64,000 nt of DNA from Candidatus Bathyarchaeota archaeon (GTDB lineage: Archaea; Thermoproteota; Bathyarchaeia; Bathyarchaeales; Bathycorpusculaceae), in NCBI GenBank assembly GCA_963707955.1, contig OY970176.1:1120001-1184000 (forward strand), read 5' to 3'. Below, piece after piece: positions 6,136-47,692 of this stretch (position 1 is the first letter of the stretch; every line of letters begins with the position of its first letter). Below the pieces are notes generated by a model that made no database searches, was not told where the DNA came from, and was given only the letters and a program-made list of their open reading frames with translations. The translations under genes and the position numbers were made by a program.

Positions 6136-6432
6136 CAATTTCACGCATGATTTGAGCTTATTTAGGCAAAAAGAACCCAATTTAGGATATTAGGAGAGAG
6201 GGTTGAAAATTGAACACGCGTTTACCGGCAAAAGTGCTTTTCATCCGCAGCGCTCGCGCTTCGGTTTTTCCCACGTCATTTTTGAAGAACTTTTTGACTT
6301 TTGAAACTGTAACCAATTCTCAAAAACCCCTGCTCAAGAACGAAGCCAGTAATGAACACGTGCTGTACGCCGAAGAAAGGTTGAAGCTCACGCGTTCAGC
6401 TTTTTAAGGCCAGCGTTCTCCATTGTTGTGCT

Positions 6433-7677
6433 GTGATAGTCTCAATAATCGTTCTTGTAATAGTCCTAGTTCTCATTGCAACTAGACGGATAGGAAATAT
6501 CAGGCTGCAGATTTGGCAGGTAATGCTTTTTGGAGCAATCCTCGTCCTGGTGACTGGGCAAATATCTCCGGCAAACGCTTTGACGTCGATAAACCTTGAT
6601 GTGATGCTTTTTCTGTTTGGAATGTTTGTTGTGGGAACAGCTCTTGAAGAAAGCGGCTACCTGGCACACCTCTCTTACAAGCTTTTTAAGAAAGCGAAAT
6701 CACCAAGCCAGCTACTATTGACCGTCCTGTTCGGCATGGGCGTGGCATCGGCTTTTTTGATGAACGATACTCTGGCAATAATGGGTACACCAATTGTTCT
6801 GCTTCTAGCAAGACAGCACCAAATGCCTCCGAAACTCATGCTCCTCACCTTAGCTTTCGCAGTGACGATCGGAAGCGCAATGAGCCCCATAGGAAACCCA
6901 CAAAACGTTCTGGTGGCGATTAATGGCAATATCCCGAACCCCTTTGTCACTTTTTTTGGTTTTCTCCTACTGCCGACCATCATAAACCTTTTCCTAGCCT
7001 TCCTTCTGCTAAGATTCTTCTATGGTAAAGACCTCCATGAGAACAAACTGGTCCATTACGAAGAACCAGTAAAAGATCCCAAGTTGGCAAAAGTTTCGAA
7101 GTTTTCACTCATTCTAATTGCTGCTTTGGTCATCGCAAAGATCATGACAGTATTCTTGAGCATTCAAATAGATTTCAGACTGACCTATATCGCACTAATA
7201 CCAGCACTTCCGATTATAGCATTGAGTCCGAGAAGGTTCGAAATAGTTAGAAAGATAGACTGGCGTACGCTGATATTCTTTGCCGCAATGTTCATTTTGA
7301 TGCAAAGCGTTTGGGAATCAGGATTTTTCCAGTCAATAATAACCGGGCTGAACTTGAACATAACCTCCACGGTCATGATCTTGCCGATCAGCACGCTTCT
7401 GAGTCAACTGATTTCCAATGTACCCCTAGTCGCATTGTATTTGCCAATGCTTTTGAAGGCTGGAGCCTCCACGGGAGAGATGATGGCTTTAGCAGCAGGA
7501 AGCACAATCGCGGGCAACCTTTTCATCCTCGGAGCCGCAAGCAACGTAATAATAATACAGAACGCAGAAAAGAAATTCGGAGAAACCATCACATTTTTGG
7601 AATTTGCAAAAATCGGTGTTCTTCTAACAGCTGTTAACGTGCTTGTTTATTGGCTGTTCTTGTCTGCACACCTTTAA
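6433..7677 (+). CDS. ArsB/NhaD/SLC13-type anion permease (YbiR-like)
   Basis: About 11 TMs; SAFLMNDT, SPIGNPQN, SQLISNVP, GAASNVII motifs. Confidence 0.88.
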   Translation: MIVSIIVLVIVLVLIATRRIGNIRLQIWQVMLFGAILVLVTGQISPANALTSINLDVMLFLFGMFVVGTALEESGYLAHLSYKLFKKAKSPSQLLLTVLFGMGVASAFLMNDTLAIMGTPIVLLLARQHQMPPKLMLLTLAFAVTIGSAMSPIGNPQNVLVAINGNIPNPFVTFFGFLLLPTIINLFLAFLLLRFFYGKDLHENKLVHYEEPVKDPKLAKVSKFSLILIAALVIAKIMTVFLSIQIDFRLTYIALIPALPIIALSPRRFEIVRKIDWRTLIFFAAMFILMQSVWESGFFQSIITGLNLNITSTVMILPISTLLSQLISNVPLVALYLPMLLKAGASTGEMMALAAGSTIAGNLFILGAASNVIIIQNAEKKFGETITFLEFAKIGVLLTAVNVLVYWLFLSAHL

Positions 7678-7714
7678 GGATATGAAGGAATTTATCGCGT
7701 AGATGTGCTTCTTT

Positions 7715-7798
7715 AGCGCGCGCTCTTCTAATAGCGGACGAACGAAGTCTCCGCACCGTTAGGACTAGGAATTGCGCCGTGTCTTCGTAGCGCGCGCT
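7715..7798. repeat. Pair of AGCGCGCGCT palindromes (7715-7724, 7789-7798)
   Basis: Read directly; 7715-7730 AGCGCGCGCTCTTCTA is identical to 42870-42885. Confidence 0.9.
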
Positions 7799-7874
7799 GT
7801 CCAGCTATAGCTTTTCCGCAAAATCGAAACTGGGTTTTTGGTTTGGTTGTAGTTGGACAAACTCTAGTCGTGTG

Positions 7875-8480
7875 CTATAACTTGATTTCTTTTGAACTAA
7901 CGGTTTCTACAAAGACATCATTTAATGGTGCGTTTATGTGCAGAGATCTGCCTACTTTCACGATTATTTTGTCTAGAAATAGTCTGTCAACAGTGTCAAA
8001 GCTGCTTATGTTTAGGGATTTCGCTTCTTTTAGTGCTTGGGAATACAGTTTTTCATCGAAGTCAACTTTTTTTGGGTCTAGAACATTATATCCAGCGTCT
8101 TTTCTCACAAACAAACCGATACCAATATGCGGAATATACTCGATGTCTTTCCTTAGATAAGGAGACAACATGCCAGTGTACAGTTCATCGTGCAAGACAA
8201 TAGCTTCTTCATTTCCTTCCTTTAGCAAAAGGAGCAACCAGTGGTCCCAAGATTTCGCGAAGCCTTCTATATGAATCGGAAAAGGTTTCCAATTCTTCAA
8301 CACTGTTTCAATATGTTCTGTCAGTTTCGTTTCTTCAACGTTACCGCAAGGCACTGGGAATACGAATGGTATGTGTGGTTTCAAAGAACCTGCAAAAGGG
8401 TTATATTTCCTGCGAAAAGAGCCAATATCCTCTTCAGTTTTCTTATCAAGCTTTGGATAATAAAGCAACGCGTAATACAT
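7875..8480 (-). CDS. 2H phosphoesterase / 2'-5' RNA ligase family protein (YjcG-like)
   Basis: FRRKYNP...KPHIPFVFP and YIPHIGIG: two His motifs about 80 aa apart. Confidence 0.8.
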   Translation of the reverse strand: MYYALLYYPKLDKKTEEDIGSFRRKYNPFAGSLKPHIPFVFPVPCGNVEETKLTEHIETVLKNWKPFPIHIEGFAKSWDHWLLLLLKEGNEEAIVLHDELYTGMLSPYLRKDIEYIPHIGIGLFVRKDAGYNVLDPKKVDFDEKLYSQALKEAKSLNISSFDTVDRLFLDKIIVKVGRSLHINAPLNDVFVETVSSKEIKL

Positions 8481-8537
8481 AATGTAAGAAGATAGCCACC
8501 TTTGTTTTTAAAACCTAGTCCGCACAGTCTTTCAACC

Positions 8538-8606
8538 CGCTACAACTTTTTCCGCAAAACCTCAAAGACAGAAATCAAATCTACTCAGCAACAGAGGACA
8601 AACTAG
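8538..8606 (-). repeat. Promoter module copy 4 (inverted), cut at AGCGCGCGCC (8605-8614)
   Basis: Reverse complement CTAGTTTGTCCTCTGTTGCTGAGTAGATTTGATTTCTGTCTTTGAGGTTTTGCGGAAAAAGTTGTAGC matches 2179-2247. Confidence 0.8.
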
Positions 8607-8629
8607 CGCGCGCCAAGATGTAAGGGATA

Positions 8630-10492
8630 TTAGGATGAATCTCCATACTCGATGTTAATTCCCGCCTCTTCTTTAAACTGCATCCTATAGAAAGAGGAGT
8701 ATATTCCGCCCGTCTCCATCAGCTCTCCATGAGTCCCTCTCTCCACTATCCGCCCATGATCGATCACTACGATTTCGTCGCAGAGCCTTATGGTCGAGAG
8801 CCTGTGGGCGATGATGATGACTAGTCTGTTCGACAGCAGATTTTTCAGGGCATTCTGTATAACGAGCTCAGTGTAGGGGTCGATGCTAGATGTGGCCTCG
8901 TCCAGGATGAGGATGTCCGGGTTAGTGAGGATCGCCCTCGCGAAGCTGATCAGCTGCCTCTGGCCGATGGAGATGTTTGAAGATCCCTCCTGGAGGATGT
9001 AGTCGTATCCTCCAGGGAGGTTCATAATGAACTTGTGAGCTCCCACCATCTTCGCTGCTTCGATGACCATCTCATCGGTCGCCCCGGGTATCCCGAAGCG
9101 GATGTTGTCCCTGATGCACATTGGGAATAAGTAGGAGTCTTGGAGGACAATGCTTTCGTGGCTCCGCAGGTCGGAGATCTTTAGGTTCCTGATGTCACGG
9201 TCATTCAGTTTAATACTGCCGTCGAGCGGGTCGTAGAACCTTGATATCAGGTTGATGATCGTGCTCTTCCCCGCGCCGGTGGGCCCAACTATTGCGAGCT
9301 TCGGTGTCTGGTGGCCTATCTCGAAGTTGATATCGTTTATGACAGGTATCTTAGGGTCGTAGCCGAAGGCGACATTCTCTGAGCTGAGCTTCTCCGACTT
9401 TCCCACCTGAACTGCCGTGTCATCCGGCGGATCTTCTACCTCTGGTTTTGTGTCGATGAGGTCGAACATCCTCTCGGTCGCGGACATGGCCTGCTGGTAC
9501 TGATCGTATGCCTGGACGAGTGCTAGTATCGGGTTGAAGAACATAATCTGGAACGCAGTGAAGGCGATGAATGTCCCCAGGGTTATCTGGCCGTTCATCG
9601 TCATGATCGCCCCGTACCAAAGGACCACGGCTGTTCCAGCGACCCTGATAGCATAGGCGACCGGCTGGTAGATTGATGAGACGAGCACAGCTAGGATCCG
9701 CTGCTTAACGACCTTGTCCTGCTCGTCGTTGAAGTGTTTGTTGAATCTGTCGACCTGGACGAATGACTTGATGACCTTCATCCCTGAGAGGCTCTCCTGC
9801 ATGGTTGAGATCATTCCCGACGTGTTCAGGAAGGCGGCCCTATTGTATTTCCTCGACAGCAATCCGAGGTAGTAGGTTGCTATCGCCGCTATGGGCATGA
9901 CCACTATGGCGAGTAGGGCGAGTTTCACGTTTAGGAAGAATATTATTGCGATGCCTAAGAAGAGGGATCCCGCGTTCTGTACAATACTAGTGAACCCCAT
10001 CCTGAAGAATATCCTGACGTTGTTTGCGTCGTTAATGGGCCTGGCTATTATTCTCCCCGTCTCTCCCTCGGAGAAGTACCTAAGGGAGATAATTTGCAGC
10101 CTAGACATTATGTCTTGTCTTATCCTGGCGACAGTGTTCTCGCCGAGGATCCTTATCTGCCACGTCGAGACGTACTGTGTGTAGTAGTAGGCAACTGTTA
10201 TGACTAGGAAGAGGGGAATCCACCAGATGAAGCCGGCCATGTTCCCGGGAGTGATTATGTCGTCCACCACGAGCTTACTCATGTAGGGCACCATCACAGT
10301 CGTTGCCGAGCTGGCGATGAGGGCCATGGACGCTAGGACAAAGTTTCTCCGGTTAGCGACCGCGTACCTGTAAAGCCTGACAAGAAGGTTCCTGTCTCTG
10401 TTGTTTCGCTTCTTTTGGGCTTCGCCTATCGTCGAGAAGACGCCGTAGCCGCTAGGTCCTCCTCCGCCCCCTCCACCGGTACCTATCGACAT
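8630..10492 (-). CDS. ABC exporter half-transporter (TMD+NBD), heterodimer subunit
   Basis: GPTGAGKS, degenerate signature ISIGQRQ, ILDEATS, AHRL. Confidence 0.95.
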   Translation of the reverse strand: MSIGTGGGGGGGPSGYGVFSTIGEAQKKRNNRDRNLLVRLYRYAVANRRNFVLASMALIASSATTVMVPYMSKLVVDDIITPGNMAGFIWWIPLFLVITVAYYYTQYVSTWQIRILGENTVARIRQDIMSRLQIISLRYFSEGETGRIIARPINDANNVRIFFRMGFTSIVQNAGSLFLGIAIIFFLNVKLALLAIVVMPIAAIATYYLGLLSRKYNRAAFLNTSGMISTMQESLSGMKVIKSFVQVDRFNKHFNDEQDKVVKQRILAVLVSSIYQPVAYAIRVAGTAVVLWYGAIMTMNGQITLGTFIAFTAFQIMFFNPILALVQAYDQYQQAMSATERMFDLIDTKPEVEDPPDDTAVQVGKSEKLSSENVAFGYDPKIPVINDINFEIGHQTPKLAIVGPTGAGKSTIINLISRFYDPLDGSIKLNDRDIRNLKISDLRSHESIVLQDSYLFPMCIRDNIRFGIPGATDEMVIEAAKMVGAHKFIMNLPGGYDYILQEGSSNISIGQRQLISFARAILTNPDILILDEATSSIDPYTELVIQNALKNLLSNRLVIIIAHRLSTIRLCDEIVVIDHGRIVERGTHGELMETGGIYSSFYRMQFKEEAGINIEYGDSS

Positions 10493-12322
10493 CTAGGGCA
10501 TCTCCTGGCCGCGCGCACTCGGGGTCTTCTCGAGGAACTGGGTCTCGTACACCCTCTTATAGATGCCCGCCCTGGCCATGAGTTCGCTGTGGGTGCCGAA
10601 TTCTGCGACCCTGCCCTCCTCAAGGACCAGTATCTTATCAGCGTTCTTGATCGTGGAGAGCCTCTGGGCGATAATAAAGGTCGTCCGCCCCTTCATCGCC
10701 TCCTCAAGTGCCTGCTGGATCTCCTGCTCCGTCCTGGCATCGACGAAGGATAATGAGTCGTCGAGGATCAGTATCTTTGGGTTCGTCAGGATCGCCCTGG
10801 CAATGGTTATCCTCTGCTTCTGCCCACCAGAGAGGGTTACGCCTCTCTCCCCAACCAAGCTATCGTACTTGTCAGGGAGGGAGTCGACGAAGTCGTGTAT
10901 CCTCGCGAGCTTCGCAGCGTTTATGACCTCCTCTATGGTCGCGTCAGCCTTGCCTAACGATATGTTGCTGTAAATAGTGCCTGTAAAGAGGAGGACATCC
11001 TGCAGTACTGATCCGATCTGTTTTTGGAGGGAGGTAAGCTTGTACTCCTTGATGTCTACGCCATCGATCTTTATGCTTCCTGACTTAACGTCGTAGAACC
11101 TAGGAATGAGGTTGATGAGAGAGGTTTTGCCAGAACCAGTGGACCCGAGTATGGCTATCTTCTCCCCGGCTTCCGCTTTGAAGCTGATGTCAGTGAGTAC
11201 ATTGGTGCCGCTAGTGTAACCGAAGTTGACGTTATTGAACTCGACTTCACCCCGCTCGATGGCGATGTCCCTGGCGTTAGGCGAGTCCCTGACATCGATT
11301 GGGGTATCTTCCATCTCCTCTATTCGTTCGAGGCTCGCGGAGGCGTTTACCCAGGAACCAATGACGTTGGCAAACGAGTTGAGCTGAGGGACGATCCTCT
11401 GCATGTATGTGGCAAATAGTATGAGGCTGCCGACGAGGAGGATTGGGTTCGGCCCAAGGAGAAGGCTCGTGCCGTATACGTAGACGAACGTCATGCCGAT
11501 CTGGAGGATGGTTTGAGGTGAGGGCGTGTAGAAGGCCTGCAGCCTCCCAGCGGCGATGGCGGTTTCGACGTACTTCGACTCTACCTGCTTGAAGCCATCC
11601 TTCATCTCCGTCTCCTTCTCGAATATCCTTACATTCTTCATGCCAATGATGTTCTGCTGGATGTAGGCCCCGAGCTTGCCGAGGATGAGCATCATCTTCA
11701 TGAATAGGGGGCGGACCTGGGTGAACTGCCTAAACTGGAGGTACATGATGAGGGGCATAGGGGCGAGGGTCAGCAGTGTCAAGACAGGGTTTATTGGGAC
11801 CATGATCAGCAGGCAAGCGGCCACTATGAAGACAGAGTCGGTGACGCTGGTCGGCCAGTTACCGGCGAAATTGTTTACGGCCTGGAGGTCCATCGTGGCG
11901 CGAGAGACGAGGTCGCCGACTGCGTTGGAGTCGAAGAACCCGAAAGACTTCTCCTCAAGCGACTTGAAGTAGTCCGACCTGATGTCTCTTGTCTGCCACT
12001 CGGCGACGTAGCTGTTCATGAACGACTCAGCGAAGGTTAACAGTCCGACGCCCATGACGACGAGGATCGTACTGAGGACAAGACCTGGGAGGAGGGCCCG
12101 CTGGCCTCCGATGATTACCTTGTCGATGATCAGGGCTAGGTAAAGGGGCTCGAAGGCGAAGAGGATAGCCCTGACACCGCTTAGCCCGGTCATGATTATA
12201 TAGTGCTTGATGTAGGGCCTGTTGTACTTCATGAAGGTCCTAAATTCTTTCCCTGAGCTCAAGATGTCCCGTTTGACTTTCATCTTGGCTATCCAATCTA
12301 GCACCGGTTTAGCAACGCTCAT
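10493..12322 (-). CDS. ABC exporter half-transporter (TMD+NBD), heterodimer subunit
   Basis: GSTGSGKT, LSGGQKQ, degenerate Walker B ILDDS and Q-switch AQRL, as in TM287/288-type heterodimers. Confidence 0.95.
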   Translation of the reverse strand: MSVAKPVLDWIAKMKVKRDILSSGKEFRTFMKYNRPYIKHYIIMTGLSGVRAILFAFEPLYLALIIDKVIIGGQRALLPGLVLSTILVVMGVGLLTFAESFMNSYVAEWQTRDIRSDYFKSLEEKSFGFFDSNAVGDLVSRATMDLQAVNNFAGNWPTSVTDSVFIVAACLLIMVPINPVLTLLTLAPMPLIMYLQFRQFTQVRPLFMKMMLILGKLGAYIQQNIIGMKNVRIFEKETEMKDGFKQVESKYVETAIAAGRLQAFYTPSPQTILQIGMTFVYVYGTSLLLGPNPILLVGSLILFATYMQRIVPQLNSFANVIGSWVNASASLERIEEMEDTPIDVRDSPNARDIAIERGEVEFNNVNFGYTSGTNVLTDISFKAEAGEKIAILGSTGSGKTSLINLIPRFYDVKSGSIKIDGVDIKEYKLTSLQKQIGSVLQDVLLFTGTIYSNISLGKADATIEEVINAAKLARIHDFVDSLPDKYDSLVGERGVTLSGGQKQRITIARAILTNPKILILDDSLSFVDARTEQEIQQALEEAMKGRTTFIIAQRLSTIKNADKILVLEEGRVAEFGTHSELMARAGIYKRVYETQFLEKTPSARGQEMP

Positions 12323-12516
12323 TTAAACCACCAGACCCATTTCTTCTCCACACAGTTACTGTGACTTATTTTTCATCGCGAGCGCGCGAGCAAAGCAACT
12401 TTTGTCGCGCGCGCTACGTTCCAAAGGCAACTCGGAACGTACAGCAGACATAGCTATCTTTCGCATCGAAAAATCACTTAACGCGCGCTCGCCCTATTGT
12501 CAGGATAGGCATGGTC

Positions 12517-12978: not shown

Positions 12979-13153
12979 GTTAATTGCACTTTCTAATAAT
13001 TAGATAATAGAACTATTTAACCCTTAACGCGCGCGCTTTGCGAGCGGACTCGAACCCATTTGGGTTTAAGTCCAGGCGGGCCGCCATAGTCATGGTCTTT
13101 TTACGGTAAAGTTGGGTGGGGGCCCCATCCCCCGCACCTTCAATGCGCCACTT

Positions 13154-16296: not shown

Positions 16297-16297
16297 T

Positions 16298-16323
16298 GTA
16301 GTACATTCGTACAGTAGTACATT
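16298..16323. promoter_or_regulatory. Probable vapBC autoregulatory operator (GTAGTACATT direct repeat x2)
   Basis: Identical 10-mers at 16298-16307 and 16314-16323, between the TATA-like element and the start codon. Confidence 0.5.
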
Positions 16324-18423: not shown

Positions 18424-18523
18424 TCTTCGGTCACTCTCACCTTCGGAAACTCCTTTAGAGAATAAAATTCTATCTGAAACTGGTCTCCGACATTGATTGA
18501 TTTGGATTAGGACTTCGCGCGCG

Positions 18524-35159: not shown

Positions 35160-35169
35160 AGGTAAGAAA

Positions 35170-35986: not shown

Positions 35987-36002
35987 TTTCAGCTTGACCT
36001 TT

Positions 36003-38266: not shown

Positions 38267-38285
38267 CCAGATTCACGGGATTTCT

Positions 38286-40455: not shown

Positions 40456-41689
40456 GAAACTGTTGACCTTTGAAGAGGCAAAAAAAGTCATTCTAGAACG
40501 ATGCAGACCTACGCCTTTGGGCATTGAAGAGATTTCGCTTCTGGAGGCTAGCAGCCGTGTTCTAGCACAAGACGTAACGGCCAGCAGAGACATTCCACCA
40601 TTTGATCGGTCAACAGTTGACGGATACGCTGTGAGGGCGCAGGACACGTTTGGTGCCGAGGAAAACAGACCGATTACGCTGGTGGCCCACGGGGCAGTGC
40701 GCGTTGGCGAAACTCCTAAGATAGTTGTCAGAAAGAAAGAAGCAGCAGAAATAGTCACAGGAGCACCTATTCCCGAAGGTGCAGACGCTGTTGTCATGGT
40801 TGAGCAGACTGAAAGAAAGGCTGACCGTGTTCGTGTTTTCAGCGCAGTTGCAAGGCATGAGAACATAATGAAGGCAGGACAGGACATCGGAAAAGGCGAG
40901 ATTGTCCTTAAATCTGGCAAACTGCTGGGTTCGAGAGAAGTCGGTGTTCTAGCTGCCTTGGGCATGGCGAAAGTCAAGGTCTACGTGGTTCCTCGAGTAG
41001 CAGTTTTTTCGACAGGAGCTGAGGTAACCGAGCCGGGCAGAAGTCTGCTCAATGGGAAGATTTATGACATCAACGCGTACAGTCTGAGCGCAGCTGTGCT
41101 CGAAAGCGGGGGGAAGCCTATTTTTCTCGGCGTTTTCCCTGATGACCTCGTCAAGCTTCAGAAAGCGTTGAGGCATGCTTTGGCCTCCGCCGACGTTGTG
41201 GTAACCTCTGGCGGTGTCTCTGTGGGCCCAAAAGATGTTATGCCAAAAGCGTTGGCTTCTCTCGGAAAACCTGGCACGATCATATCTGGAATCGCTATCA
41301 AGCCTGGAAAACCCACGACGATAGGGCTGATCTGCGATAAACCAGTGTTTTCACTTCCTGGACATCCTACATCTGCATTGCTGGTTTTCCATCTACTTGC
41401 CCGCCCGATAATACAGGCAATGGGAGGGAGAAGAGCAGAAGAAGACTTAGAAGTGAAGGCTATCACAATGGCAAGGATGTTCCCGGCAAAGGGAAGAAGA
41501 ACATTTGTCATGGTGGCCCTGAAGCGCGATAAGCTAAACCGGACTGTGGCCGAGCCTATTCTAGCAGGGGATTCTGGAGCGATAACGACCCTCACGAGAG
41601 CAGATGGTTATGTTGAGATACCTGAAAACGTGCAATTCGTGGATGCAGACGAGGAAGTCGCGGTGCGACTTTTTCGAAAAATGCCGTAA
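40448..41689 (+). CDS. moeA: Molybdopterin molybdotransferase MoeA, second paralog
   Basis: PPFDRSTVDGYAV, TGAPIP, SGGVSVG, KPGKP, LPGHP. Confidence 0.95.
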   Translation: MFRKLLTFEEAKKVILERCRPTPLGIEEISLLEASSRVLAQDVTASRDIPPFDRSTVDGYAVRAQDTFGAEENRPITLVAHGAVRVGETPKIVVRKKEAAEIVTGAPIPEGADAVVMVEQTERKADRVRVFSAVARHENIMKAGQDIGKGEIVLKSGKLLGSREVGVLAALGMAKVKVYVVPRVAVFSTGAEVTEPGRSLLNGKIYDINAYSLSAAVLESGGKPIFLGVFPDDLVKLQKALRHALASADVVVTSGGVSVGPKDVMPKALASLGKPGTIISGIAIKPGKPTTIGLICDKPVFSLPGHPTSALLVFHLLARPIIQAMGGRRAEEDLEVKAITMARMFPAKGRRTFVMVALKRDKLNRTVAEPILAGDSGAITTLTRADGYVEIPENVQFVDADEEVAVRLFRKMP

Positions 41690-41752
41690 ACGACAAAGAG
41701 AATTTGAGAAGACGAATGTTGGTGCGATTACATAAAACGAGAAAAGATGTCC

Positions 41753-42110
41753 TCATTCTTCAAGAACTTTTCTCTTGTTTGCGGCGTATGCCGTGAAGAC
41801 CCATGTTAGAATGAGATAGAAAATCATTCCGACGCTGAGAAGATAATTGCTTGTCAAAACACTGTAAATGACATAGAATGCGAAAGTTGTGCTAGCAAAG
41901 AACAAGATTATGATAAACCAGAATGACCAAGCTCTCTTCCTAAACATGCCATAGGCAGCAATCAGGCTGAGTATGCCGAGGATCCCAACGTGCGGCGGGA
42001 AGCCACTCAATGGCAAAAGGGCAATGAATGCTATTCCGACGATTGCGTAGAAAGCGGATGTTGCGAAAATTCCCCAGTCTCTCAATCCTCAGCCTCGACC
42101 CGAGTGACAT
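41753..42110 (-). CDS. Four-TM membrane protein (probable 1-nt frameshift near 42078; ATG at 42110)
   Basis: Hydrophobic ORF 41753-42085; upstream ATG TCA CTC GGG (MSLGSRLRIE) joins after removal of one base; TATA-like TTTATTAA at about 42150-42157. Confidence 0.65.
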
Positions 42111-42115
42111 TTTCC

Positions 42116-42190
42116 ATACGCCTTTAACCCTAATGCATTGACGGTAACATTAATAAATCTAATGTTCTACTTTCCTTTCTAATGACACTC
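42116..42190. repeat. att-like repeat copy 1 containing AACATTA-ataaatc-TAATGTT (other copies 42769-42843, 44248-44289)
   Basis: TAATAAATCTAATGTTCTACTTTCC is identical in copies 1 and 2; ATAAATCTAATGTTC is also in copy 3. Confidence 0.85.
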
Positions 42191-42263
42191 CTGTAAACCA
42201 TAGCGTGAAAAAGAAAGCCCGCCCTAAAAAATAGGAAGTTCTTTTTTCATTACCTCGCACGCG

Positions 42264-42656
42264 CTATTTCTTGGCAGCCTTGCTAAGGTATGCGCCTATT
42301 TGTTCTGTCTCTTTAGCAAAGGTCTCGTACGGATAGTGTTGACCATGGATCATAGCACTCCATCTAGAAGTGTAGCTGGCCAGAAATGCAATTTCTGCAA
42401 GTTCTTCCTTCGTGGCACCGTACATTTTGGCTGCGCTTATGTGGAAGAGCGCGCAGTATGGACACCTTATGTTTGCTGCAACTGCTAATCCCATCAGCTC
42501 CCTGTACTTTGCGGGTATCTTACTCTCCCCCAAGGTGTACTTTTTGAAAAGAGGCCAGTCATGTATAAGGACATCCTTTGGTAGAGCCTCCATGAAGCCA
42601 GGAACAAGACCGAGGCTTTTCTTAATGTCATTCAGCGTATCTTCATATTCTCCCAT
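42264..42656 (-). CDS. Carboxymuconolactone decarboxylase/AhpD family protein
   Basis: IPAKYRELMGLAVAANIRCPYCALFH; GGAGGTGA SD before the ATG at 42656. Confidence 0.9.
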   Translation of the reverse strand: MGEYEDTLNDIKKSLGLVPGFMEALPKDVLIHDWPLFKKYTLGESKIPAKYRELMGLAVAANIRCPYCALFHISAAKMYGATKEELAEIAFLASYTSRWSAMIHGQHYPYETFAKETEQIGAYLSKAAKK

Positions 42657-42893
42657 TGATATCACCTCCGATCTTGAGTGATTTACAACTGATAACTCGC
42701 TTTTAGCCACCTATCGAACAGGAAGTATAATACTGAATTGCATATAGCACGGCCGGATTGCGCGCGCTATAGCGTTAACCTTAATGCTTTTTCAGTACCA
42801 CTAATAAATCTAATGTTCTACTTTCCCGTTTAAACTCACACTCACGGATAGCACTTCTAGAAAAGGAAGAGCGCGCGCTCTTCTAGCCAATCA

Positions 42894-43346
42894 TCACTTT
42901 TTCGTCGTGTATTTCTCTGACTCTTCCTGAAGTTCTTTCGTCCAATCCTTAGTAGGCATCGGACTGTTGATTTCGATAAGGTTTCCATCAGGGTCTCTCA
43001 GGTAAACCACTCGCATACCCCAATCTGGACGTTCTTGAAGCTCAGTAATGAATCCAATATTCCTTTCTTTTAACCTTTTGATGGTAGTGTCAAGGTCATC
43101 CACGGTGAATATCAATGCTATTCTGTCTTGGGCAACTGCACTCTCAGGAAGGTTGGACGTGCCTAAGGCTTTTGCTTGGGCTTCTCTCTTAAAAAGTGAA
43201 AGTTGGGCTCCTCCTTCTGAAACGTAGCTTGCATATGCACCCTTTTCTTCTCCCCACGTTACCCTCAAGCCCATGGCGTCTCTGTAGAAGCGGAAGCAAG
43301 CCTCAAAATCGACAACTAACAGTCTCACATGATCCAAATGTAACAT
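42894..43346 (-). CDS. VOC/glyoxalase family protein
   Basis: HVRLLV, FYRDAMG, WGMRVVYLRDPDGNLIEI. Confidence 0.92.
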   Translation of the reverse strand: MLHLDHVRLLVVDFEACFRFYRDAMGLRVTWGEEKGAYASYVSEGGAQLSLFKREAQAKALGTSNLPESAVAQDRIALIFTVDDLDTTIKRLKERNIGFITELQERPDWGMRVVYLRDPDGNLIEINSPMPTKDWTKELQEESEKYTTKK

Positions 43347-43439
43347 AGCTTAACTCCTCGGAAAAAACTTGTTTTTCACACATATAATTATTCCTCTAAC
43401 GAAGAAGAATTTTGTCAAAAAGTGGTTGTGGTTGGGGTA

Positions 43440-43740
43440 AAGTTTCTGAACATCATCAACATTTCTAGCGATGGCTGAATGATAAATATCAGACTCTTCA
43501 AACTCCACCAATTGTGTATAGATTAATGTGTTGGCAATGTTCTTATGTCCCAATAACGTCATTACATATAGAATGTCTTTAGTCCTATGATTTTGTCGCT
43601 TTCCAATGGCGAAATGTATGGAAATGGATCTTCAATAATCTTGGATTCCCAAGCTTCTTTGCAGAGCGTTTTCTCTGAGGGTTGAAATTGTTAAACATTG
43701 TTTGCCATGAATTGGCTCCAAAGACCTTATCGCTATCTCT
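43440..43740 (-). pseudogene. Tyrosine recombinase/integrase C-terminal fragment, frameshifted and truncated at both ends
   Basis: Translates QRKRSAKKLGNPRLLKIHFHTFRHWKAT / HRTKDILYVMTLLGHKNIANTLIYTQL, with HxxR, LLGH and catalytic Y. Confidence 0.85.
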
Positions 43741-44087
43741 GCGCGCGCGCTAAAAGCCAAGAAGATCTATGAAGCAACCGACAAGCCGGCCACAAACTCA
43801 TACAAGAGGGACGAATATCCAAGCGACTCCTCAGAATCATCAGTCAACCACTCATTTCGAGACAGAAACGGCTGCGTTCCTGAGCTTTTGGAAAACGTGC
43901 GCTAACCAACCACTAGTTGACACGCAAGATTGAAATGCCCAAAATGGCCGCTTCCGGTTGTCATGAGGTCGGCGCACGCGCTCTTTTTGACGTGGGCATA
44001 TTTGGATCCAAATATCCATGGTACGTTGAAACCGAGGAGGGGCAGGTTCCTCAGCCTAGCAAAGACTTCTCAACCCACCAAAATCTA

Positions 44088-44112
44088 GGAGCCGGGGATG
44101 GGAGTTGAATCC
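44088..44112 (-). other. tRNA 3'-end fragment (T loop to discriminator U; Cys/Thr-like), probable att remnant
   Basis: Reverse complement GGATTCAACTCCCATCCCCGGCTCC; no 5' half upstream. Confidence 0.55.
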
Positions 44113-44336
44113 TAGGCTAATGGAGACATCACCCGCCCACTCTGCCGTTTCTCTCTGCATCAATGTATTCTGGCCACTTTGCACTAACATGTGCGACCCA
44201 CCGTCAAACCAGCCCGGTTTAACTGGCATCGTCCGACTATGGACCCGATAAATCTAATGTTCCATTCCAAACACTTAACTTCACACTCAAATTGAACTCA
44301 AAGCGTGCGCTTTCATCTTCACCGTCAATACGGGCG

Positions 44337-45392
44337 CTATTGAAATTCTGCCACCATCGCATCCATTACAAGAACCTCTCTGAATCCTAAATTCTTCACT
44401 GTTTCTATGAGTTCTTGCCTTGCTGTAGGAGCCGCTAGGCGAATTCTTCTTACGCCGCCTTCGGCAATTTCGTTGTTTGCTGCTTCTATGAGTAGTTTCT
44501 CGATGCCGAGCGACCTGTCTTCAGAGTTTACCTGTATAGAACCGATACGGCCTGCTTCTTTGGCCGTGGTGTACGATGCCTCAGCATACCCAACTATCCT
44601 GCTACCCAGCACAGCAACCAGCTTCTTCTGAGTCGCGAAACCGAATATCCGCTGTAGGAATGGTGTTTTCAAGTCTTTCTTCGTGAAATCGAAGATCCTT
44701 AGGCTGTTCGGGTCTTCTGAGGCTTCTATTAGGTTGTAGACCTCGTCCAAGTCATCTTTCTGGAATTCTCTGATTTTGACTCCGGAGGCGTTTTCTGGCG
44801 CACGCATGGAATTTGTCTCTCTGACGAAATAGGCCAAATGCTCAAATGTTTTGAACCCCAGCTTGACGTAGACGCTTTTTGCAGAGTCATTCGTAGAATC
44901 TACGTGAAGGACTGCTCTCGCCTTTTTTCTTCTTCGAATGTAGTTGAGGGCATTTGTCATTAGTGTGGTCGCGATTCCTTTTCTTCTGTAGTCTGGGTGC
45001 ACCATGACTGATGATATGTAGCCGGATTTTCCTCGGTTATTGATGATTGTTGTGCCGACAATTTTGCCGTCTGCTTCTGCAACGAGAAACTTTGCTGGTT
45101 CTTTTCCACTGAGCCGCAGCAGCCCTAGGATGAGCGTGCCAGTTCTTCCGAATGCGCGATTGACCATGTCAGCTACATGATCTGGATCAAAGCCTGAAAT
45201 CTCGAACTCCTTGGCAAAACACATTGTAAAAAGACCCAGCAAATCACTCAAATCAGACTTGCGGAGGTCTCTAATCAGAATGTGGCCATTCGTTTTGTCG
45301 AGTTCTGTGTTTTCCATATCCGAAGCTTCCAATATCTGTATCCTCGATTTCGATGTATTTGAAATTTTTCCACAGTTATTATCATGGCGCAT
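44337..45392 (-). CDS. Tandem GNAT acetyltransferase (start may be 45317)
   Basis: VHPDYRRKGIAT, AKSVYVKLGF; second degenerate GNAT domain (EDRSLGIE, KNLGF). Confidence 0.88.
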   Translation of the reverse strand: MRHDNNCGKISNTSKSRIQILEASDMENTELDKTNGHILIRDLRKSDLSDLLGLFTMCFAKEFEISGFDPDHVADMVNRAFGRTGTLILGLLRLSGKEPAKFLVAEADGKIVGTTIINNRGKSGYISSVMVHPDYRRKGIATTLMTNALNYIRRRKKARAVLHVDSTNDSAKSVYVKLGFKTFEHLAYFVRETNSMRAPENASGVKIREFQKDDLDEVYNLIEASEDPNSLRIFDFTKKDLKTPFLQRIFGFATQKKLVAVLGSRIVGYAEASYTTAKEAGRIGSIQVNSEDRSLGIEKLLIEAANNEIAEGGVRRIRLAAPTARQELIETVKNLGFREVLVMDAMVAEFQ

Positions 45393-45643
45393 GAGGAAAA
45401 TCCGCGCGCATTCACTTTCTTAGACACAGTAATCAACATAGCCCAAACGACTGGTCACTACCCTAGGTGTTCTGTGCAAAGTGATCAATCCAAGATTCGC
45501 AGAGCGAGGAGCAATTTTGAACGAATGGGCAAGAGATAACAACTCAAAGCGCATGCTCTAGAAAAGGAAGAGCGCGCATTACGCTTATTAGTGAGCAATT
45601 TTGAGAGGTCTAGCACACGGTGCACTCAAGGAGCTTAACCGCA

Positions 45644-46375
45644 ATGGGAACAGCTGAAGAAGAAAACGTTGACGAAGTCAATTACAAGCATGAAATCAAA
45701 GTCACCAAGAATGGCCCATACCTTGTTTCTGGCAAACTCCCCATATCCGAACAAATAATCATCGTCAACAAGGATAGGGTTCCGGTCGAATGGCGTTCGG
45801 GCAAGAAATATCCTTTGCAGGAAAAATGCGGTCTTTGCCGATGTGGAGAATCAAAAAACAGACCTTTCTGTGATGGAACACATACAAAAATCGGTTTTGA
45901 TGGTACTGAGCGGGCCAGCAGTGAACCCTACCTGAAACAGGCAAAAATCATACAGGGCCCAACGCTTAAGCTAACCGACGTTGTGGATCTTTGTGCCTCT
46001 GCGCGTTTCTGTCATAGAGCAGGCGAAATTTGGAACCTTATTCCAAAATCAGATGACATGGACGCTAAACGTGCGGCAATCGAAGAAGCAGGAGACTGCC
46101 CGTCAGGTCGCCTTGTGATTTGGAACAAGAAAACAGGGGAGGCAATTGAACCAAAATTGGAAAAATCAATCGGGTTAATTGAAGACCCTCAGATGGAGTG
46201 CAGTGGTCCGATTTGGGTACGAGGAGGCATCCCGATTAGGTCTGTAGATGGAAAAATCTATGAAGTTCGCAATCGCGTTACTCTCTGTCGCTGCGGCAAG
46301 TCCTCCATCAAACCATTTTGTGATAGCAGTCACTTCCCTGAGCATCGCTACGAAGAAATGATGTCTCGTAAGTAA
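45644..46375 (+). CDS. CDGSH iron-sulfur domain protein (two CDGSH motifs plus divergent 4Fe-4S domain)
   Basis: LCRCGESKNRPFCDGTH, CASARFC...CPSG, LCRCGKSSIKPFCDSSH. Confidence 0.92.
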   Translation: MGTAEEENVDEVNYKHEIKVTKNGPYLVSGKLPISEQIIIVNKDRVPVEWRSGKKYPLQEKCGLCRCGESKNRPFCDGTHTKIGFDGTERASSEPYLKQAKIIQGPTLKLTDVVDLCASARFCHRAGEIWNLIPKSDDMDAKRAAIEEAGDCPSGRLVIWNKKTGEAIEPKLEKSIGLIEDPQMECSGPIWVRGGIPIRSVDGKIYEVRNRVTLCRCGKSSIKPFCDSSHFPEHRYEEMMSRK

Positions 46376-46487
46376 AATCAACATGATCCTATATTTTGTA
46401 GCGCGCAGTGAGAAAAACAGAGAGCCACCTACTGTCATATTTTTCGCACCAAGTATTCGAGGTAATGCTAGTAAGCTTCAACATTGA

Positions 46488-46919
46488 TTACATTAGTCCT
46501 AGCTGTTTCATCATTCCGACTACGTCGTAGAAAAGGCGTTCCTCTTTGATTTCGTTGTTTTTCCAAGTGGCAACGGTGCAGAACTCGAGCTTAGCCGTTT
46601 TGTGCGTAGGTTGAACGATTTTTCCATCTGGCCCTTTCATTGGTCCTATCATGGTTGCTGTCCAGTCAGCGACAGAACAAGTGTAGTTGCCATCGCCGAA
46701 AAGAATTTTGTAAGGATTATTAACCAGCTTATTATCAAATGTTTTGAAGAATTCGACAGATTCCTTGTAATGTGCTTCTCGACCTCTCGTCGGTTCCGGC
46801 TGACCAGGCCAGTAAACTGCGACGTTTGCTGCGTGGCGTTTCTTGAATGTCTCCCAATCCTGATTGTTCCAAGCATCATCCAAAGTCATCATCAATTTCA
46901 TGTTTTCCTTCACACCCAT
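46488..46919 (-). CDS. SnoaL-like ester cyclase (NTF2 fold)
   Basis: DDAWN, PTRGREA, IKEERLFYD...QLGL; GAGGTGA SD. Confidence 0.88.
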   Translation of the reverse strand: MGVKENMKLMMTLDDAWNNQDWETFKKRHAANVAVYWPGQPEPTRGREAHYKESVEFFKTFDNKLVNNPYKILFGDGNYTCSVADWTATMIGPMKGPDGKIVQPTHKTAKLEFCTVATWKNNEIKEERLFYDVVGMMKQLGLM

Positions 46920-47007
46920 CACAATCACCTCAACAGTCCGAAGTCATTGCTAGGATAATAAAATTGCGAAAGCTGCTAAGGAAAGCGCGCCAAAAAATGA
47001 GAAAAAT

Positions 47008-47346
47008 CTACGGATTCTTTGTGAGTTCTGATAGTTGTTTTTTGGTTAACCCAACCCCAGGCTCGGCATCAAGCCTCTTGTGCACCTTTCCTTTTTTGAA
47101 AAGAAGCACAGTGGGGTAGTACTCAATCGCGTATTCCTCACACAAATCTGGTCTTTCATCAACTATGACGCGCATGCACTCTTGCGGATTGCCTCTGGCG
47201 TACTCTTCAAATACTGGTAGGAACCTTTGGGAAAATGGGCACCAAGTAGTGTAGAAGAGGACAAAAGCCCTGTCCTTGTTTTCTATTTCTCTCCCTAGAC
47301 TGCTACTTCTGGAGACTTCTATTTTACGCTTTTCAGCTTTGCTCAT
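47008..47346 (-). CDS. Thioredoxin-fold protein with CxxS motif
   Basis: FYTTWCPFS, YYPTVLLFKKG. Confidence 0.85.
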   Translation of the reverse strand: MSKAEKRKIEVSRSSSLGREIENKDRAFVLFYTTWCPFSQRFLPVFEEYARGNPQECMRVIVDERPDLCEEYAIEYYPTVLLFKKGKVHKRLDAEPGVGLTKKQLSELTKNP

Positions 47347-47692
47347 TCATCTTTCACCCCTCTTTTATATCGCGTCTTAGCCTGTATACCAGCAACCATT
47401 AAAGTTTTTCGCGTTTTGAAAGCACGCATGCTAAAATACAATCTTGGGTTCATGCAGCAACCTGCCCAGCGCGCGCTATCCCAGTTGGACCGCGTCTTGA
47501 TCAATGTTTACTTCCGATTAAGCCCGCGTATGATTTCTTTTCTAGGTAATCGTAATACCTCATAATGTTCTGGCGTTAACATAAATGCATTCAATGTTGA
47601 CGGTTTGGCAGCCTTGCGGAATTTTTAATATTAGGTGGCGGCCTACAAGTGGTAAGTACAGAAGGAAATGTCTAGCAAGCGGATGAAGACAG

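Follow-up and report, generated by a model that had tools for sequence, protein, structure and literature searches.

A GC palindrome that looks like the joint of a cut-and-rejoin system for gene-sized DNA in a Bathyarchaeia genome

GC runs at the locus

The stretch of DNA analysed here (the window, 64,000 nucleotides of the genome under study, G000) contains two variable patches, which lie at the two ends of a 29-kb segment inverted in the congener G001. An earlier note on this DNA had listed copies of a palindrome in its intergenic DNA, and we recovered the exact sites as 8-mers at 7716, 7790, 8606, 12407, 13029, 18517, 42760, 42871, 43741/43743 and 47469. The variant sites at 6250, 17755, 42257, 43972, 44303, 45402, 45570 and 53817 were also found (one mismatch); those near 43895, 45548 and 47421 are weaker and were left uncounted. 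Equally, the flanks shared between distant copies are present: AGCGCGCGCTCTTCTA at 7715 and 42870, TCTAGAAAAGGAAGAGCGCGC at 42856 and 45557, and AACTCAAAGCG at 44295 and 45541. Exact 6-mers lie at 12382, 12483, 45404, 45572, 46401, 46985 and 53819. The features are listed below (a strand is given for the tRNA gene only).

6018-6132, plus strand: tRNA gene missed by ARAGORN (Rfam tRNA 39.4 bits, gathering score 29)
7716-7723: GCGCGCGC run in the spacer past a CitMHS transporter gene (family by Pfam), left variable patch; exact match in the G001-unaligned block 6164-13103
7790-7797: second GCGCGCGC run in the CitMHS-side spacer; exact match in the G001-unaligned block
8606-8613: GCGCGCGC run in the spacer between a 2'-5' RNA ligase-like gene and an ABC transporter pair (Pfam); exact match
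12382-12488: three runs in one ABC transporter/MarR spacer (6-mer at 12382, 8-mer at 12407, 6-mer at 12483)
13029-13036: GCGCGCGC run, exact match; in the alignment, G001 homology resumes 68 bp on, at 13104
13104-42175: conserved 29-kb segment, inverted in G001 (minus strand at C7:38309-69616, plus strand for its flanks)
18517-18524: GCGCGCGC run, a three-state hot spot; HSP ends at distance 0 (G001) and 1 (G007), junction sequences of events e1 and e17
42760-42878: two GCGCGCGC runs (42760, 42871) in one spacer of the right variable patch, with the CMD gene on one side and the VOC (glyoxalase-family) gene on the other; G001-unaligned block 42176-47475
43741-43750: (GC)5 run in a 990-bp spacer, a 10-mer giving two 8-mer matches (43741/43743)
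45572-45577: GCGCGC at the left edge of a CDGSH unit, 15 bp from the G007 edge and 3 bp from the G009 edge
46401-46990: SnoaL single-gene unit with GCGCGC at 46401 and 46985; indel against G007, and a joint in sequencing run X4
47469-47476: GCGCGCGC run, the exact right end of the variable patch; G001 and G007 homology both start at 47476, distance 0
53817-53824: CCGCGCGC in a conserved spacer; exactly six bases (CGCGCG) are missing in G001, a bare-motif indel

At site 18517, G001 has a 1.78-kb insert starting with the motif, the congener G007 has the motif directly, and G000 has 59 other bases beside it. The CDGSH unit has G007 homology from 45557 and a 90%-identical copy in G009 from 45569, G009 being otherwise about 70-78% identical. 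G007 lacks bases 46590-46979 of the SnoaL unit (event at G000 1166589/1166980), and a related strain (sequencing run X4; one contig, depth 5.9) skips 46400-47005, with a joint from 46399 to 47006. The last 16 bases of the tRNA gene (6119-6134) recur at 13123-13138 as a direct repeat and the pair brackets the left patch, which is additionally a tRNA-att-flanked island.

Abundance and placement of the run

The 8-letter palindrome GCGCGCGC occurs 464 times in the 2.35-Mb G000 genome, which is that of a sediment archaeon, against 26-34 expected under Markov models of order 1-3. The window holds 11 exact matches (0.76 expected), a number reached by none of 100 shuffles; with one mismatch allowed, its 53 matches (19.8 expected) were likewise equalled by none of 100. 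Maximal (GC)n runs number 6133, 570, 374, 45 and 0 for n = 2, 3, 4, 5 and 6, a distribution with a shoulder at n = 4 that then ends abruptly (peak length 8, longest 11), unlike the smooth decay with length seen for other dinucleotide repeats. The flanks carry information only at A(-1) and T(+1) and none further out.

Of 419 runs of length 8 or more, 362 are intergenic by our own, crude gene calls. The intergenic density is 0.78 per kb and the coding density 0.023 per kb, and tandem, convergent and divergent spacers are alike in density. With two close congeners as reference, non-alignable intergenic DNA is 5-11 times richer in the motif than alignable DNA (1.28-1.34 per kb when strain-variable versus 0.12-0.27 per kb when conserved). 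The first comparison set gave 61 runs in 45.5 kb of variable spacers versus 5 in 41.3 kb of conserved spacers (P about 1e-12); across 816 kb of genome the figures were 75 in 58.7 kb versus 24 in 89.9 kb (P about 2e-13), so that conserved spacers still hold 24 runs. The clustering in accessory patches reported in the earlier note is confirmed in the window, where all ten runs of at least 8 lie inside the blocks unaligned with G001 (6164-13103, 42176-47475) or exactly at a block boundary (distance 0 for 18517 and 47469), although the 19-42 kb region consists of operons with almost no spacer and the local contrast is therefore partly a lack of opportunity. The genome-wide density tests remove this caveat, and core intergenic DNA does not share the density of accessory DNA. 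Within aligned DNA of 94%-identical genomes just 4 sites are common among about 23 runs and most others differ by point substitutions, so mutation creates or erodes some of the copies.

In each of the 10 further genomes of the genus AGCGCGCGCT is found 7-92 times; in 20 genomes from neighbouring genera the count is 0-1. The motif recurs patchily elsewhere in the phylum: among 150 other genomes, high counts were also found in G209 (30), G170 (22) and seven species of the genus g85 (16-118), the seven remaining g85 species having 0-3. At g85 loci the runs are likewise clustered between short genes.

Breakpoints and events at the runs

Ends of HSPs fell within 5 bp of a G000 8-mer in 14 of 123 cases for G001 (P = 3e-9) and 10 of 119 for G007 (P = 8e-6), the baseline being random intergenic positions, 1.4% of which lie within 5 bp of an 8-mer. 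Similarly, 27 of 207 intergenic repeat ends within G000 itself were this close (P = 4e-18). Homology breakpoints with the two congeners and internal repeat ends thus coincide with the motif at 6-9 times the rate of random intergenic positions, in line with the earlier claim, and low-complexity filtering, on or off, left the breakpoint results unchanged. The positional profile of 199 junction ends shows 16 runs within +/-5 bp (9.2 per kb); the interior of variable segments has about 0.9 per kb, and the conserved flanks have 0-0.5 per kb. Among 130 collinear indel or replacement events, an 8-mer lay within 12 bp of a junction end in 32 and a 6-mer or longer in 47; the other 83 had no motif within 12 bp, so motif-bearing junctions are a minority. 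Further processes, tRNA-att integration among them, are clearly at work too.

Empty sites often have one copy and filled sites have copies at one or both ends: the empty site G007 C1:208570 is one run, the filled G000 1559002-1560753 has runs at both ends, and event e35 is alike. Content is swapped between the same two runs in e16 and e36, and three different contents lie beside one run at window 18517 and in e10/e39. A 585-bp unit is duplicated in G000 (715099-715683 and 1421017-1421601) with GCGCGC flanking both sides. The cargo consists of ordinary genes, mostly single transcription units and not transposases, and includes the cassette-type families named earlier (GNAT, VOC, SnoaL, CMD and others).

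Runs also mark sites of loss. At G000 1702081-1703185 a run stands in place of 1.1 kb, its left joint lying within a 306-codon ORF kept in two genomes. One locus underwent two independent deletions, closed by GCGCGCGC in one case (G001) and by CCGCGTGCAAAG in the other (G007), and of the 133 small indels in 807 kb of aligned sequence 5 are bare GC runs. Some joints fall at ancestral GC or GCG (e13, G000 1702081). Event polarity was taken throughout from three genomes that recombine, and ancestral states are therefore not certain. In many replacement events the junction run is in only one of the two genomes. Among about 22 simple insertion/deletion events, classified by eye, there are 7 in which neither end of the filled allele has a run; a model in which the runs are purely unit ends would not predict this.

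Part of the motif signal is due to a family of MITEs of about 200 bp, of which 18 paired copies were found, most with GCGCGC at both tips. The MITE is polymorphic between genomes, its empty site being run-free in e44 and ACGCGC in e42.

Interpretation and known systems compared

The motif looks like the joint of a cut-and-rejoin system for gene-sized DNA. We give a probability of about 0.5 to the reading in which mobile DNA units of this genus physically end, or are joined, at the GC run. Gene-sized segments and the MITEs bear (GC)3-4 at one or both ends; such run-ended units vary in presence, or have been exchanged, moved or duplicated, both from one close genome to another and inside G000, breaking exactly at the run; and a site that lacks its unit often retains a lone (GC)3-5 run. 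A putative activity, for which a transposase-like or restriction-like nuclease is a candidate, would cut in or at the run. The ends being self-complementary, any two could anneal again, whichever way round, in registers that differ by two bases, which would yield 6-, 8- or 10-base joints but no 12-base ones and would permit insertion, excision, exchange and inversion without long homology. Each lone run would be a new usable end, so that motif and cassettes would spread together. Sealing could be done by the complete end-joining operon of the genus, which unites Ku, LigD primase-polymerase and ligase-phosphoesterase; against this, the motif also occurs in a lineage in which Ku was not found (g85), and Ku is present in a motif-poor genus (G038).

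The 'crossover site or scar' proposed in the earlier note is borne out by the density, breakpoint and contig data, on all three of which the outcome was opposite to the one that the note named as refuting it; the MITE share of the signal and the tRNA-att island on the left qualify it. No recombinase, transposase or methyltransferase tracking the motif was found: none of the candidates profiled for their distribution follows it, and three transposase families are absent from G000.

Integron-like conservative site-specific recombination, with a tyrosine or serine recombinase, the palindrome as crossover core and circular single-gene cassettes moving in and out, seems to us unlikely. It would account for the one-run empty and two-run filled sites (G007 208570; e35), the exchanged contents (e16, e36) and the run with three neighbours in three genomes, and since a recombination core of this kind is palindromic, inversions would be possible too. 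In dense arrays single-gene units are parted by runs, and one array (G000 845-874 kb) has two tyrosine recombinase genes inside; G000 has 9 tyrosine recombinase matches in all. However, an 8-10-bp site without conserved arms is far below any recombinase site length known to us. De novo bare runs at deletion joints and small indels are impossible by conservative recombination, and a junction run present, in many replacement events, in only one of the two genomes also argues against it. Tyrosine recombinase numbers (0-22 per genome over 40 genomes of the family) do not follow the motif, the array integrase is not conserved in the genus (best G001 match 31% identical), and gene orientation in the arrays is mixed.

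It is rather improbable that one cut-and-paste family explains everything, the MITE and an unseen autonomous partner inserting at or creating GCGCGC, excision leaving (GC)4-5 and gene rearrangements being repair by-products. The GCGCGC tips, the MITE polymorphism and bare-run indels, a run length ending below 12 (twice 6) and the A/T flank preference common to MITE ends and lone runs are consistent with it, as are 9 MITE-end matches in motif-rich G209. Yet the motif-rich G090 and G120 (both g85) and G170 have 0 matches each, only 57 of 252 fuzzy TIR-core matches adjoin a run, while the runs of 8 or more number 419, and random insertion and excision would mark all spacers alike, contrary to the 5-11-fold density gap. 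Duplicated or relocated gene units end exactly at runs without subterminal MITE sequence. PF07282 (TnpB), PF01797 (Y1 transposase) and PF13358 (IS630-type DDE) each have 0 matches in G000, and a search of G000 and of 1.3 Mb from relatives turned up no long element with MITE ends.

Illegitimate recombination favours GC-rich microhomologies, and the run could be a passive one that owes its abundance to something else (protein binding, insulation of transcription units from each other, DNA uptake or biased repair) and is favoured by ordinary joining; we hold this to be quite unlikely. As the most stable self-complementary 8-mer common to many spacers, the run would tend to attract end joining or illegitimate recombination. 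The full Ku/LigD operon occurs in 8 of 11 genus genomes versus 2 of 151 in the phylum sample, joints lie at the GC/GCG of e13 and G000 1702081, and excerpts of a recent report propose that cyanobacterial HIP1 aids uptake and recombination (PMC13756078). Nevertheless, passive joining leaves the existence of the motif, its stop at 10-11 and its 5-11-fold rarity in conserved spacers unexplained, and the run at a joint is often in one partner only. Ku was not found in any of 14 g85 genomes, a genus that includes motif-bearing species. A C5 methyltransferase is also absent (PF00145, 0 matches in G000).

A HIP1-type palindrome, upheld by methylation-linked repair or selection and only secondarily associated with junctions, is very improbable. 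The hyper-abundant, lineage-specific octamer and five N6_N4-type methyltransferase genes in G000 speak for it. Against it, the motif is nearly missing from coding DNA and weakly conserved (the 4 shared sites noted above), the C5 family is lacking, and a methyltransferase-Mrr fusion is missing in 9 of the 10 further genus genomes and in 14 of 14 g85 genomes; HIP1 is conserved and quasi-periodic in the excerpts of PMC13756078, and our motif is not.

An artefact of assembly or alignment can practically be dismissed: comparators are metagenome-assembled genomes and BLAST segment ends can be imprecise, yet G000's own repeats show an equal signal, filtering has no effect, eight bases are far under assembler word size, and independent contigs of the probable source run (the read-level evidence being contigs only, from a single study) cross every motif junction in window 38000-52000, breaking only at a dispersed repeat unrelated to the motif, so the junctions are not assembly chimeras.

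Among known systems, pdif modules of Acinetobacter plasmids, bounded by 28-bp XerC/XerD sites, similarly place gene modules between short recombination sites in varied contexts, but no extended 28-bp-type site surrounds the archaeal run. REPs are imperfect palindromes of 20-40 bp with a cognate Y1 transposase; REP/BIME sequences with RAYT are likewise intergenic, palindromic and highly repeated, whereas the archaeal motif has 8-10 bp and PF01797 is unmatched. Cut-and-paste transposons such as Tc1/mariner leave footprints, which the lone runs resemble in being short, length-bounded, A/T-flanked and clean indels, with GCGCGC at MITE tips; unlike MITEs and their transposons, most runs and junction units have no subterminal inverted repeat, no transposase was found, and a distant motif-bearing genus is without the MITE.

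An attC is a folded site of 57-141 bp. Integron cassettes, reported in Archaea in the excerpts of PMC9668308, share with our units the mostly single-gene arrays, presence/absence and exchange at a repeated boundary, and typical cargo; the archaeal boundary, in contrast, consists of an 8-10-bp palindrome alone, each unit retains its own spacer, units stand in both orientations, no conserved integrase lies beside the arrays, and runs arise de novo at deletions. HIP1 (GCGATCGC) of cyanobacteria is also an 8-bp, lineage-specific palindrome tens of times over expectation, and has recently been linked to gene transfer, again as excerpted (PMC5861425; bioRxiv 10.1101/2024.09.10.611283; PMC13756078). 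Unlike HIP1, for which conservation, quasi-periodicity and a tie to two methylases are described, the archaeal motif is confined to spacers, turns over fast, is concentrated in strain-variable DNA, lies on rearrangement joints, and has no C5 methylase. The system is neither an integron nor HIP1-like.

A GC palindrome in the spacers of the genome

The earlier note had described the palindrome GCGCGCGC as a mark of junctions between accessory gene modules, and its motif coordinates and shared flanks in the window proved correct. The window holds 11 copies of this word against 0.76 expected from dinucleotide-preserving shuffles, and 53 against 19.8 when one mismatch is allowed. The count against a Markov expectation that the note had proposed gave a similar picture genome-wide. 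In the whole genome holding the window (G000; one contig of 2.35 Mb, 47.9% G+C, with the window at bases 1,120,001-1,184,000) there are 464 overlapping occurrences in 419 runs, that is, maximal (GC)n stretches, against 26-34 expected under Markov models of order 1-3, and the 10-mer AGCGCGCGCT occurs 114 times against 2.0-2.5 expected under the same models. Relatives detected through a conserved window protein carry the title Candidatus Bathyarchaeia.

Maximal (GC)n runs with n from 2 to 6 number 6133, 570, 374, 45 and 0, respectively, in G000. Run lengths have their peak at 8 and none exceeds 11, in contrast to the smooth decay of AT, AC, AG, CT and GT repeats; microsatellite slippage was therefore rejected in favour of a specific motif. 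The 30 bases on each side of the 464 sites carry ~0.01-0.06 bit per position, except for A at -1 and T at +1. As the logo holds no further flank information, the bulk of the copies do not lie within a longer repeat, which is true only of the MITE subset described below. TA target duplication was also rejected, with TA...TA flanks at only 19 of the 114 AGCGCGCGCT copies.

Genes were called with our own crude codon-usage ORF picker (2225 genes, 80% coding). On these calls, in which 'intergenic' may include small unannotated genes, 362 of the 419 runs lie wholly between genes, 44 within coding DNA and 13 across a gene edge; spacers have 0.78 runs per kb and coding DNA has 0.023. Density is similar whether the spacers are tandem, convergent or divergent (0.66, 1.08 and 0.79 per kb, respectively), and the runs keep no sharp distance from starts or stops, so a promoter or terminator signal was rejected. 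We read the run as a joint at the level of DNA rather than as a regulatory word. Between neighbouring intergenic (GC)3+ runs less than 6 kb apart (585 pairs), no gene is enclosed in 250 cases, one in 172, two in 71 and three or more in 92.

The densest array of GC runs lies at G000 845-874 kb (stretches L076-L077). Its single-gene units include a TBP paralogue with an SSB-like gene, in a 3.3-kb unit partly duplicated elsewhere in G000. Two paralogous GT4 glycosyltransferases also lie there, as do two tyrosine recombinases that share 73% identity.

Variable DNA and the anatomy of joints

Shared blocks are 88-95% identical between G000 and two congeners, G001 and G007. Over 452 kb syntenic with the fetched G001 contigs, the non-alignable spacers of G000 hold 61 runs in 45.5 kb and the alignable ones 5 in 41.3 kb (P ~1e-12); over 816 kb compared with either congener, the figures are 75 in 58.7 kb and 24 in 89.9 kb (P ~2e-13). 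Strain-variable spacers are 5-11 times denser in the motif, conserved spacers still being above expectation, and the similar density in core intergenic DNA that the earlier note had named as speaking against its own claim was not seen. Inside DNA aligned with G001 there are ~23 runs, of which only 4 sites are common to both genomes; most others differ by 1-3 substitutions.

Breakpoints between genomes fall on the motif more often than by chance, in line with the earlier prediction. For G001, 14 of 123 BLAST segment ends (segments >=500 bp) lie within 5 bp of a G000 8-mer, compared with 1.4% of random intergenic positions (P = 3e-9). Similarly, 10 of 119 G007 segment ends lie this close to a G000 8-mer, or 17 of 119 when runs of either genome count. 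These results were unchanged with the BLAST low-complexity filter on or off. At the 199 junction ends of G000-specific segments, 16 runs were found within +/-5 bp, equal to 9.2 per kb of spacer; the variable segment further in has ~0.9 per kb and the conserved flank 0-0.5. The run's own length inflates this narrow bin about two-fold, which leaves a true excess of roughly five-fold over the interior. Among 130 collinear insertion, deletion or replacement events (>=30 bp), an 8-mer lies within 12 bp of a junction end in 32 and a 6-mer or longer in 47, and no run lies within that distance in 83.

Repeats inside G000 (>=250 bp, >=70% identity), which need no other assembly, gave an equivalent result: 27 of their 207 intergenic ends lie within 5 bp of an 8-mer (P = 4e-18). 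Copied units in G000 with runs at their ends include the following.

715099-715683 and 1421017-1421601: copied unit of 585 bp, GCGCGC on both sides
870337-873678: copied unit of 3.3 kb, 8-mers on both sides
918944-919522: copied unit of 0.57 kb, bounded by a run

The joints take several forms. G007 has one 8-mer (C1:208570) as the empty counterpart of 1.75 kb held between a 6-mer and an 8-mer in G000 (1559002-1560753), and a second difference, event e35, sets 6-mer ... 6-mer against a lone 6-mer. Content is exchanged between two runs at G000 1699553-1700620 relative to G001 (~1.07 kb each) and at G000 1256972-1257116 relative to 7.1 kb in G007. At window 18517 and G000 1885473 one run has three neighbours, one side differing among G000, G001 and G007. 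Relocation is seen for a 3.4-kb piece at ~1.68 Mb in G000, which in G007 lies inside the window's right patch, inverted and with 8-mers at both ends. Insertions into runless sites brought a run at one end (G000 1414420-1427855, 13.4 kb; 1318919-1332235, 13.3 kb). Simple insertion/deletion events were split by run position by eye, not by script, into ~11 with runs at the empty site and at least one insert end, 7 with the empty site only and 4 with the insert only.

Runs also replace segments whose ends carry none. At G000 1768847 a run stands in place of ~1 kb common to G001 and G007. In G007, GCGCGCGC stands in place of G000 1702081-1703185, a segment kept in G001; the left joint falls within an ORF of 306 codons without a Pfam family, which suggests a deletion closed by a newly made run. 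Across G000 2018221-2019025, G001 has GCGCGCGC in place of ~790 bp and G007 independently has CCGCGTGCAAAG in place of the inner 517 bp. Among the small indels (4-16 bases; 133 over 807 kb of alignments), 5 consist of a bare GC run, one of them at window 53817. Together, the runless-end replacements and bare-run indels show that runs can be created at a joint.

A subset of runs forms the outer tip of a MITE end, a ~24-base inverted repeat consisting of GCGCGC, four variable bases and TGTTCCTRAATTC. G000 has 18 paired copies of 110-293 bp, mostly ~180-200 bp, with GCGCGC at both ends in most. This ~200-bp family has the inverted ends, small size, many copies and insertion polymorphism of a MITE or TIR transposon: copies in G000 are absent from G007 at events e42 and e44, the empty sites being ACGCGC and no run, respectively. 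Only 57 of 252 fuzzy matches to the MITE core adjoin a run. No long element with MITE ends was found in G000 or the fetched relatives, and an Rfam search of MITE-bearing loci found nothing. The end sequence has 9 matches in motif-rich G209, from another genus of the family, and none in three further motif-rich genomes of the phylum (G090, G120, G170), which counts against one MITE as sole cause; the MITE shares the run's end chemistry but cannot alone explain the motif.

Read evidence consisted of contigs only, from four sequencing runs of one study, one of them possibly the source. Contigs of run X1 span every GC junction in window 38000-52000, which argues against the assembly chimeras that the earlier note had considered, and break only at a 46-bp dispersed repeat. 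This element (window 43997-44042), at which independent contigs break, has an internal palindrome and a GGAGG box (CATATTTGGATCCAAATATCCATGG...GAGGAGGGG), with ~10 copies in G000 and many in every searched genome of the genus; it looks like a shared operator/promoter with a ribosome-binding site. In run X4 a related strain skips the SnoaL unit with a clean joint, 46399 -> 47006, and a contig departs from the window at 47049, continuing with GCGCGCGCG as a loose end. A weak rearranged joint that goes back, with GCGCGCGCG between its sides, has depth 2. The X4 joints are too thin for a claim of circular intermediates. Runs X5-X20 contain only minor parts of the window and form no part of this evidence.

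Several other features of the window were recorded. A tRNA gene at 6018-6132 (+) was missed by ARAGORN and default Rfam filters and scored 39.4 bits with laxer filters. As its last 16 bases (6119-6134) are repeated 7 kb downstream (13123-13138), the left patch is bracketed like an element integrated in a tRNA gene, yet without an integrase. Elsewhere in G000, several strain-specific inserts of 3.5-9 kb start exactly at tRNA 3' ends, with the tRNA end repeated (1791492, 2015975 and 1924202; L006-L020 comparisons), so classical integrase-type islands coexist with GC-run junctions. The 29-kb conserved block at window 13104-42175 is inverted in G001 relative to both flanks and has the window orientation in G007; the two variable patches lie at the two ends of this inversion. 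An AT-rich stretch, TAATAAATCTAATGTTC..., is found in three right-patch spacers (window ~42140-42170, 42790-42820 and 44262-44285) perhaps as a promoter that adjoining units have in common. At window 45569-47016, the CDGSH and SnoaL units are 90% identical to C32:4315-5752 of the genome G009, which is otherwise ~67-78% identical here, and this suggests a recent transfer of the two-unit piece, the left edge of which lies 3 bp from GCGCGC.

Distribution of the motif and candidate enzymes

The word AGCGCGCGCT is present at 7-92 copies in 10 of 10 other genomes of the genus and at 0-1 copies in 20 genomes taken from other genera within the family and order. We then sampled 150 further genomes of the phylum, in which reversed-word controls were low in the motif-rich ones. 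G209 has 30 copies and G170 has 22. Seven species of the distant genus g85 have 118, 88, 70, 33, 32, 18 and 16 copies, and seven other g85 species have 0-3. In the sampled g85 loci the runs are clustered between short genes, as in G000, and no nucleotide similarity to G000 was seen except for one 67% match; flank counts at these loci (A 19/22, T 20/22) are not evidence, the loci having been picked by AGCGCGCGCT matches. All 11 genomes sampled from one genus have the marker, which reappears in a patchy way in at least one distant genus of the phylum; the uneven g85 counts (16-118 against 0-3) make the question accessible to phylogenetic profiling.

The earlier note had proposed a search for a recombinase or methyltransferase that tracks the motif, and no profiled candidate does so. 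Tyrosine recombinases number 9 in G000 and 9-15 across those genomes of the genus that are near-complete, with 0-22 in the family's other genera; being equally numerous in motif-free genera, their number was rejected as a correlate. The integrase at G000 853339-854286, within the dense array, is not conserved in the genus, its best G001 match being 31% identical. C5 methyltransferase (PF00145) gave 0 matches in G000 and G002, so C5 methylation with short-patch repair was rejected as the motif source; PMC4390886 makes no mention of GCGCGC, archaea, very short patch or intergenic. G000 has five PF01555 (N6_N4 methyltransferase) genes. The distribution of the one that was profiled, a methyltransferase-Mrr_cat fusion (G000 1265660-1267033), does not follow the motif: 9 of the 10 other genomes of the genus lack it, as do all 14 g85 genomes, and motif-rich G209 has a 67%-identical ortholog. 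This fusion is one of two paralogous N6_N4 methyltransferase and Mrr-type nuclease fusions, L092 3660-5033 (-) and L093 4006-5184 (+), the latter at G000 993006-994184; an IS240-like DDE transposase gene adjoins the L092 fusion.

TnpB (PF07282), Y1 transposase (PF01797) and IS630-type DDE (PF13358) gave 0 matches each in G000. A complete end-joining operon lies outside the window at G000 957178-960233 (L177 5178-8233) and encodes a LigD primase-polymerase, Ku and a fusion of an ATP-dependent ligase with a 3'-phosphoesterase. Of the 11 genomes of the genus, 8 have Ku, compared with only 2 of 151 in the phylum sample. As a correlate of the motif Ku was rejected, since motif-poor G038 has it too and none was found in the 14 g85 genomes.

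Possible mechanisms and comparison with known systems

The most economical mechanism is one of cutting and rejoining, and we put the probability that GC runs delimit cassettes in this way at about 0.5. Cutting in or at a GC tract would leave self-complementary ends, and any two such ends could pair in either orientation, in registers two bases apart. This would account for the palindrome and for the length classes 6, 8 and 10 with no 12. Cutting and rejoining would also explain the lone run at empty sites, runs at one or both insert ends, exchange, relocation and inversion, as well as the joint increase of motif and accessory genes. A more specific form, offered tentatively and as one we would bet against, is an undescribed archaeal gene-shuffling system: a lineage-hopping enzyme would cut a minimal, self-complementary GC tract, any two tracts would define a movable single-gene cassette, the ends would be rejoined either way, and motif and accessory genome would spread together.

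An integron-like recombinase is unlikely; the creation of runs at joints counts against purely conservative recombination. The same observation favours a footprint or end-joining component, and the runs could be footprints of one transposon family with the rearrangements as by-products. A lone run as an excision footprint needs a matching autonomous element and a transposase, and none was found (long elements; PF07282, PF01797 and PF13358), and we consider this reading slightly more doubtful still. Passive microhomology ranks a little lower again, as an improbable source. HIP1-like maintenance and artefact jointly take the small remainder.

Bathyarchaeia are abundant and uncultured, and their gene gain and loss are largely unknown. 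The motif is a base-resolution, statistically strong marker of joints between accessory genes and the chromosome. A dedicated enzyme behind it would mean a novel route to gene islands, with a recognition element of only 8-10 bp, and would be of interest to the study of genome evolution and as a possible tool; the motif, if a transposon footprint, would record cut-and-paste excision in a prokaryote with unusual clarity.

Literature searches yielded no paper on GCGCGCGC or on any similar palindrome at junctions between archaeal genes; supplementary tables of over-represented palindromes could bear on novelty. Integron attC sites are 57-141-bp imperfect inverted repeats with conserved core sites, whereas the flanks of the run are nearly free of information beyond A(-1) and T(+1). 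Integron arrays stand beside a conserved integrase; of the two tyrosine recombinases within the 845-874 kb array, the one tested has no close ortholog in most of the genus. Integron cassettes are mostly promoterless and co-oriented, whereas both orientations occur in the window patches and in the array at 845-874 kb. In some respects the motif behaves as integron cassettes do, yet it lacks the defining attC, co-orientation and conserved integrase.

Sites of a resident Type II restriction system are as a rule avoided in the genome, whereas GCGCGCGC is 14-18 times enriched. A DNA uptake sequence would be marked by preferential uptake of the DNA that bears it and by enrichment in core genes; this motif, being rarer in conserved DNA, differs in distribution from the uptake sequences of Neisseria or Haemophilus. 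With no Y1 (RAYT) transposase (PF01797) matched in G000, this is not a REP/RAYT system. HIP1 is likewise an octameric palindrome many-fold over expectation (here 464 against 26-34). HIP1 sites are described, in part by PMC13756078, as evolutionarily conserved and spread through the genome including genes; here 44 of 419 runs are coding and 4 of ~23 sites are common with G001. HIP1 has cognate DNA methyltransferases; in G000, PF00145 was unmatched and five PF01555 genes are present, the one profiled not tracking the motif. The gene-shuffling system proposed here would instead follow the logic of 'restriction-ligation in vivo' or of minimal-end transposition, and would be distinct from integrons, Xer modules and known IS families.
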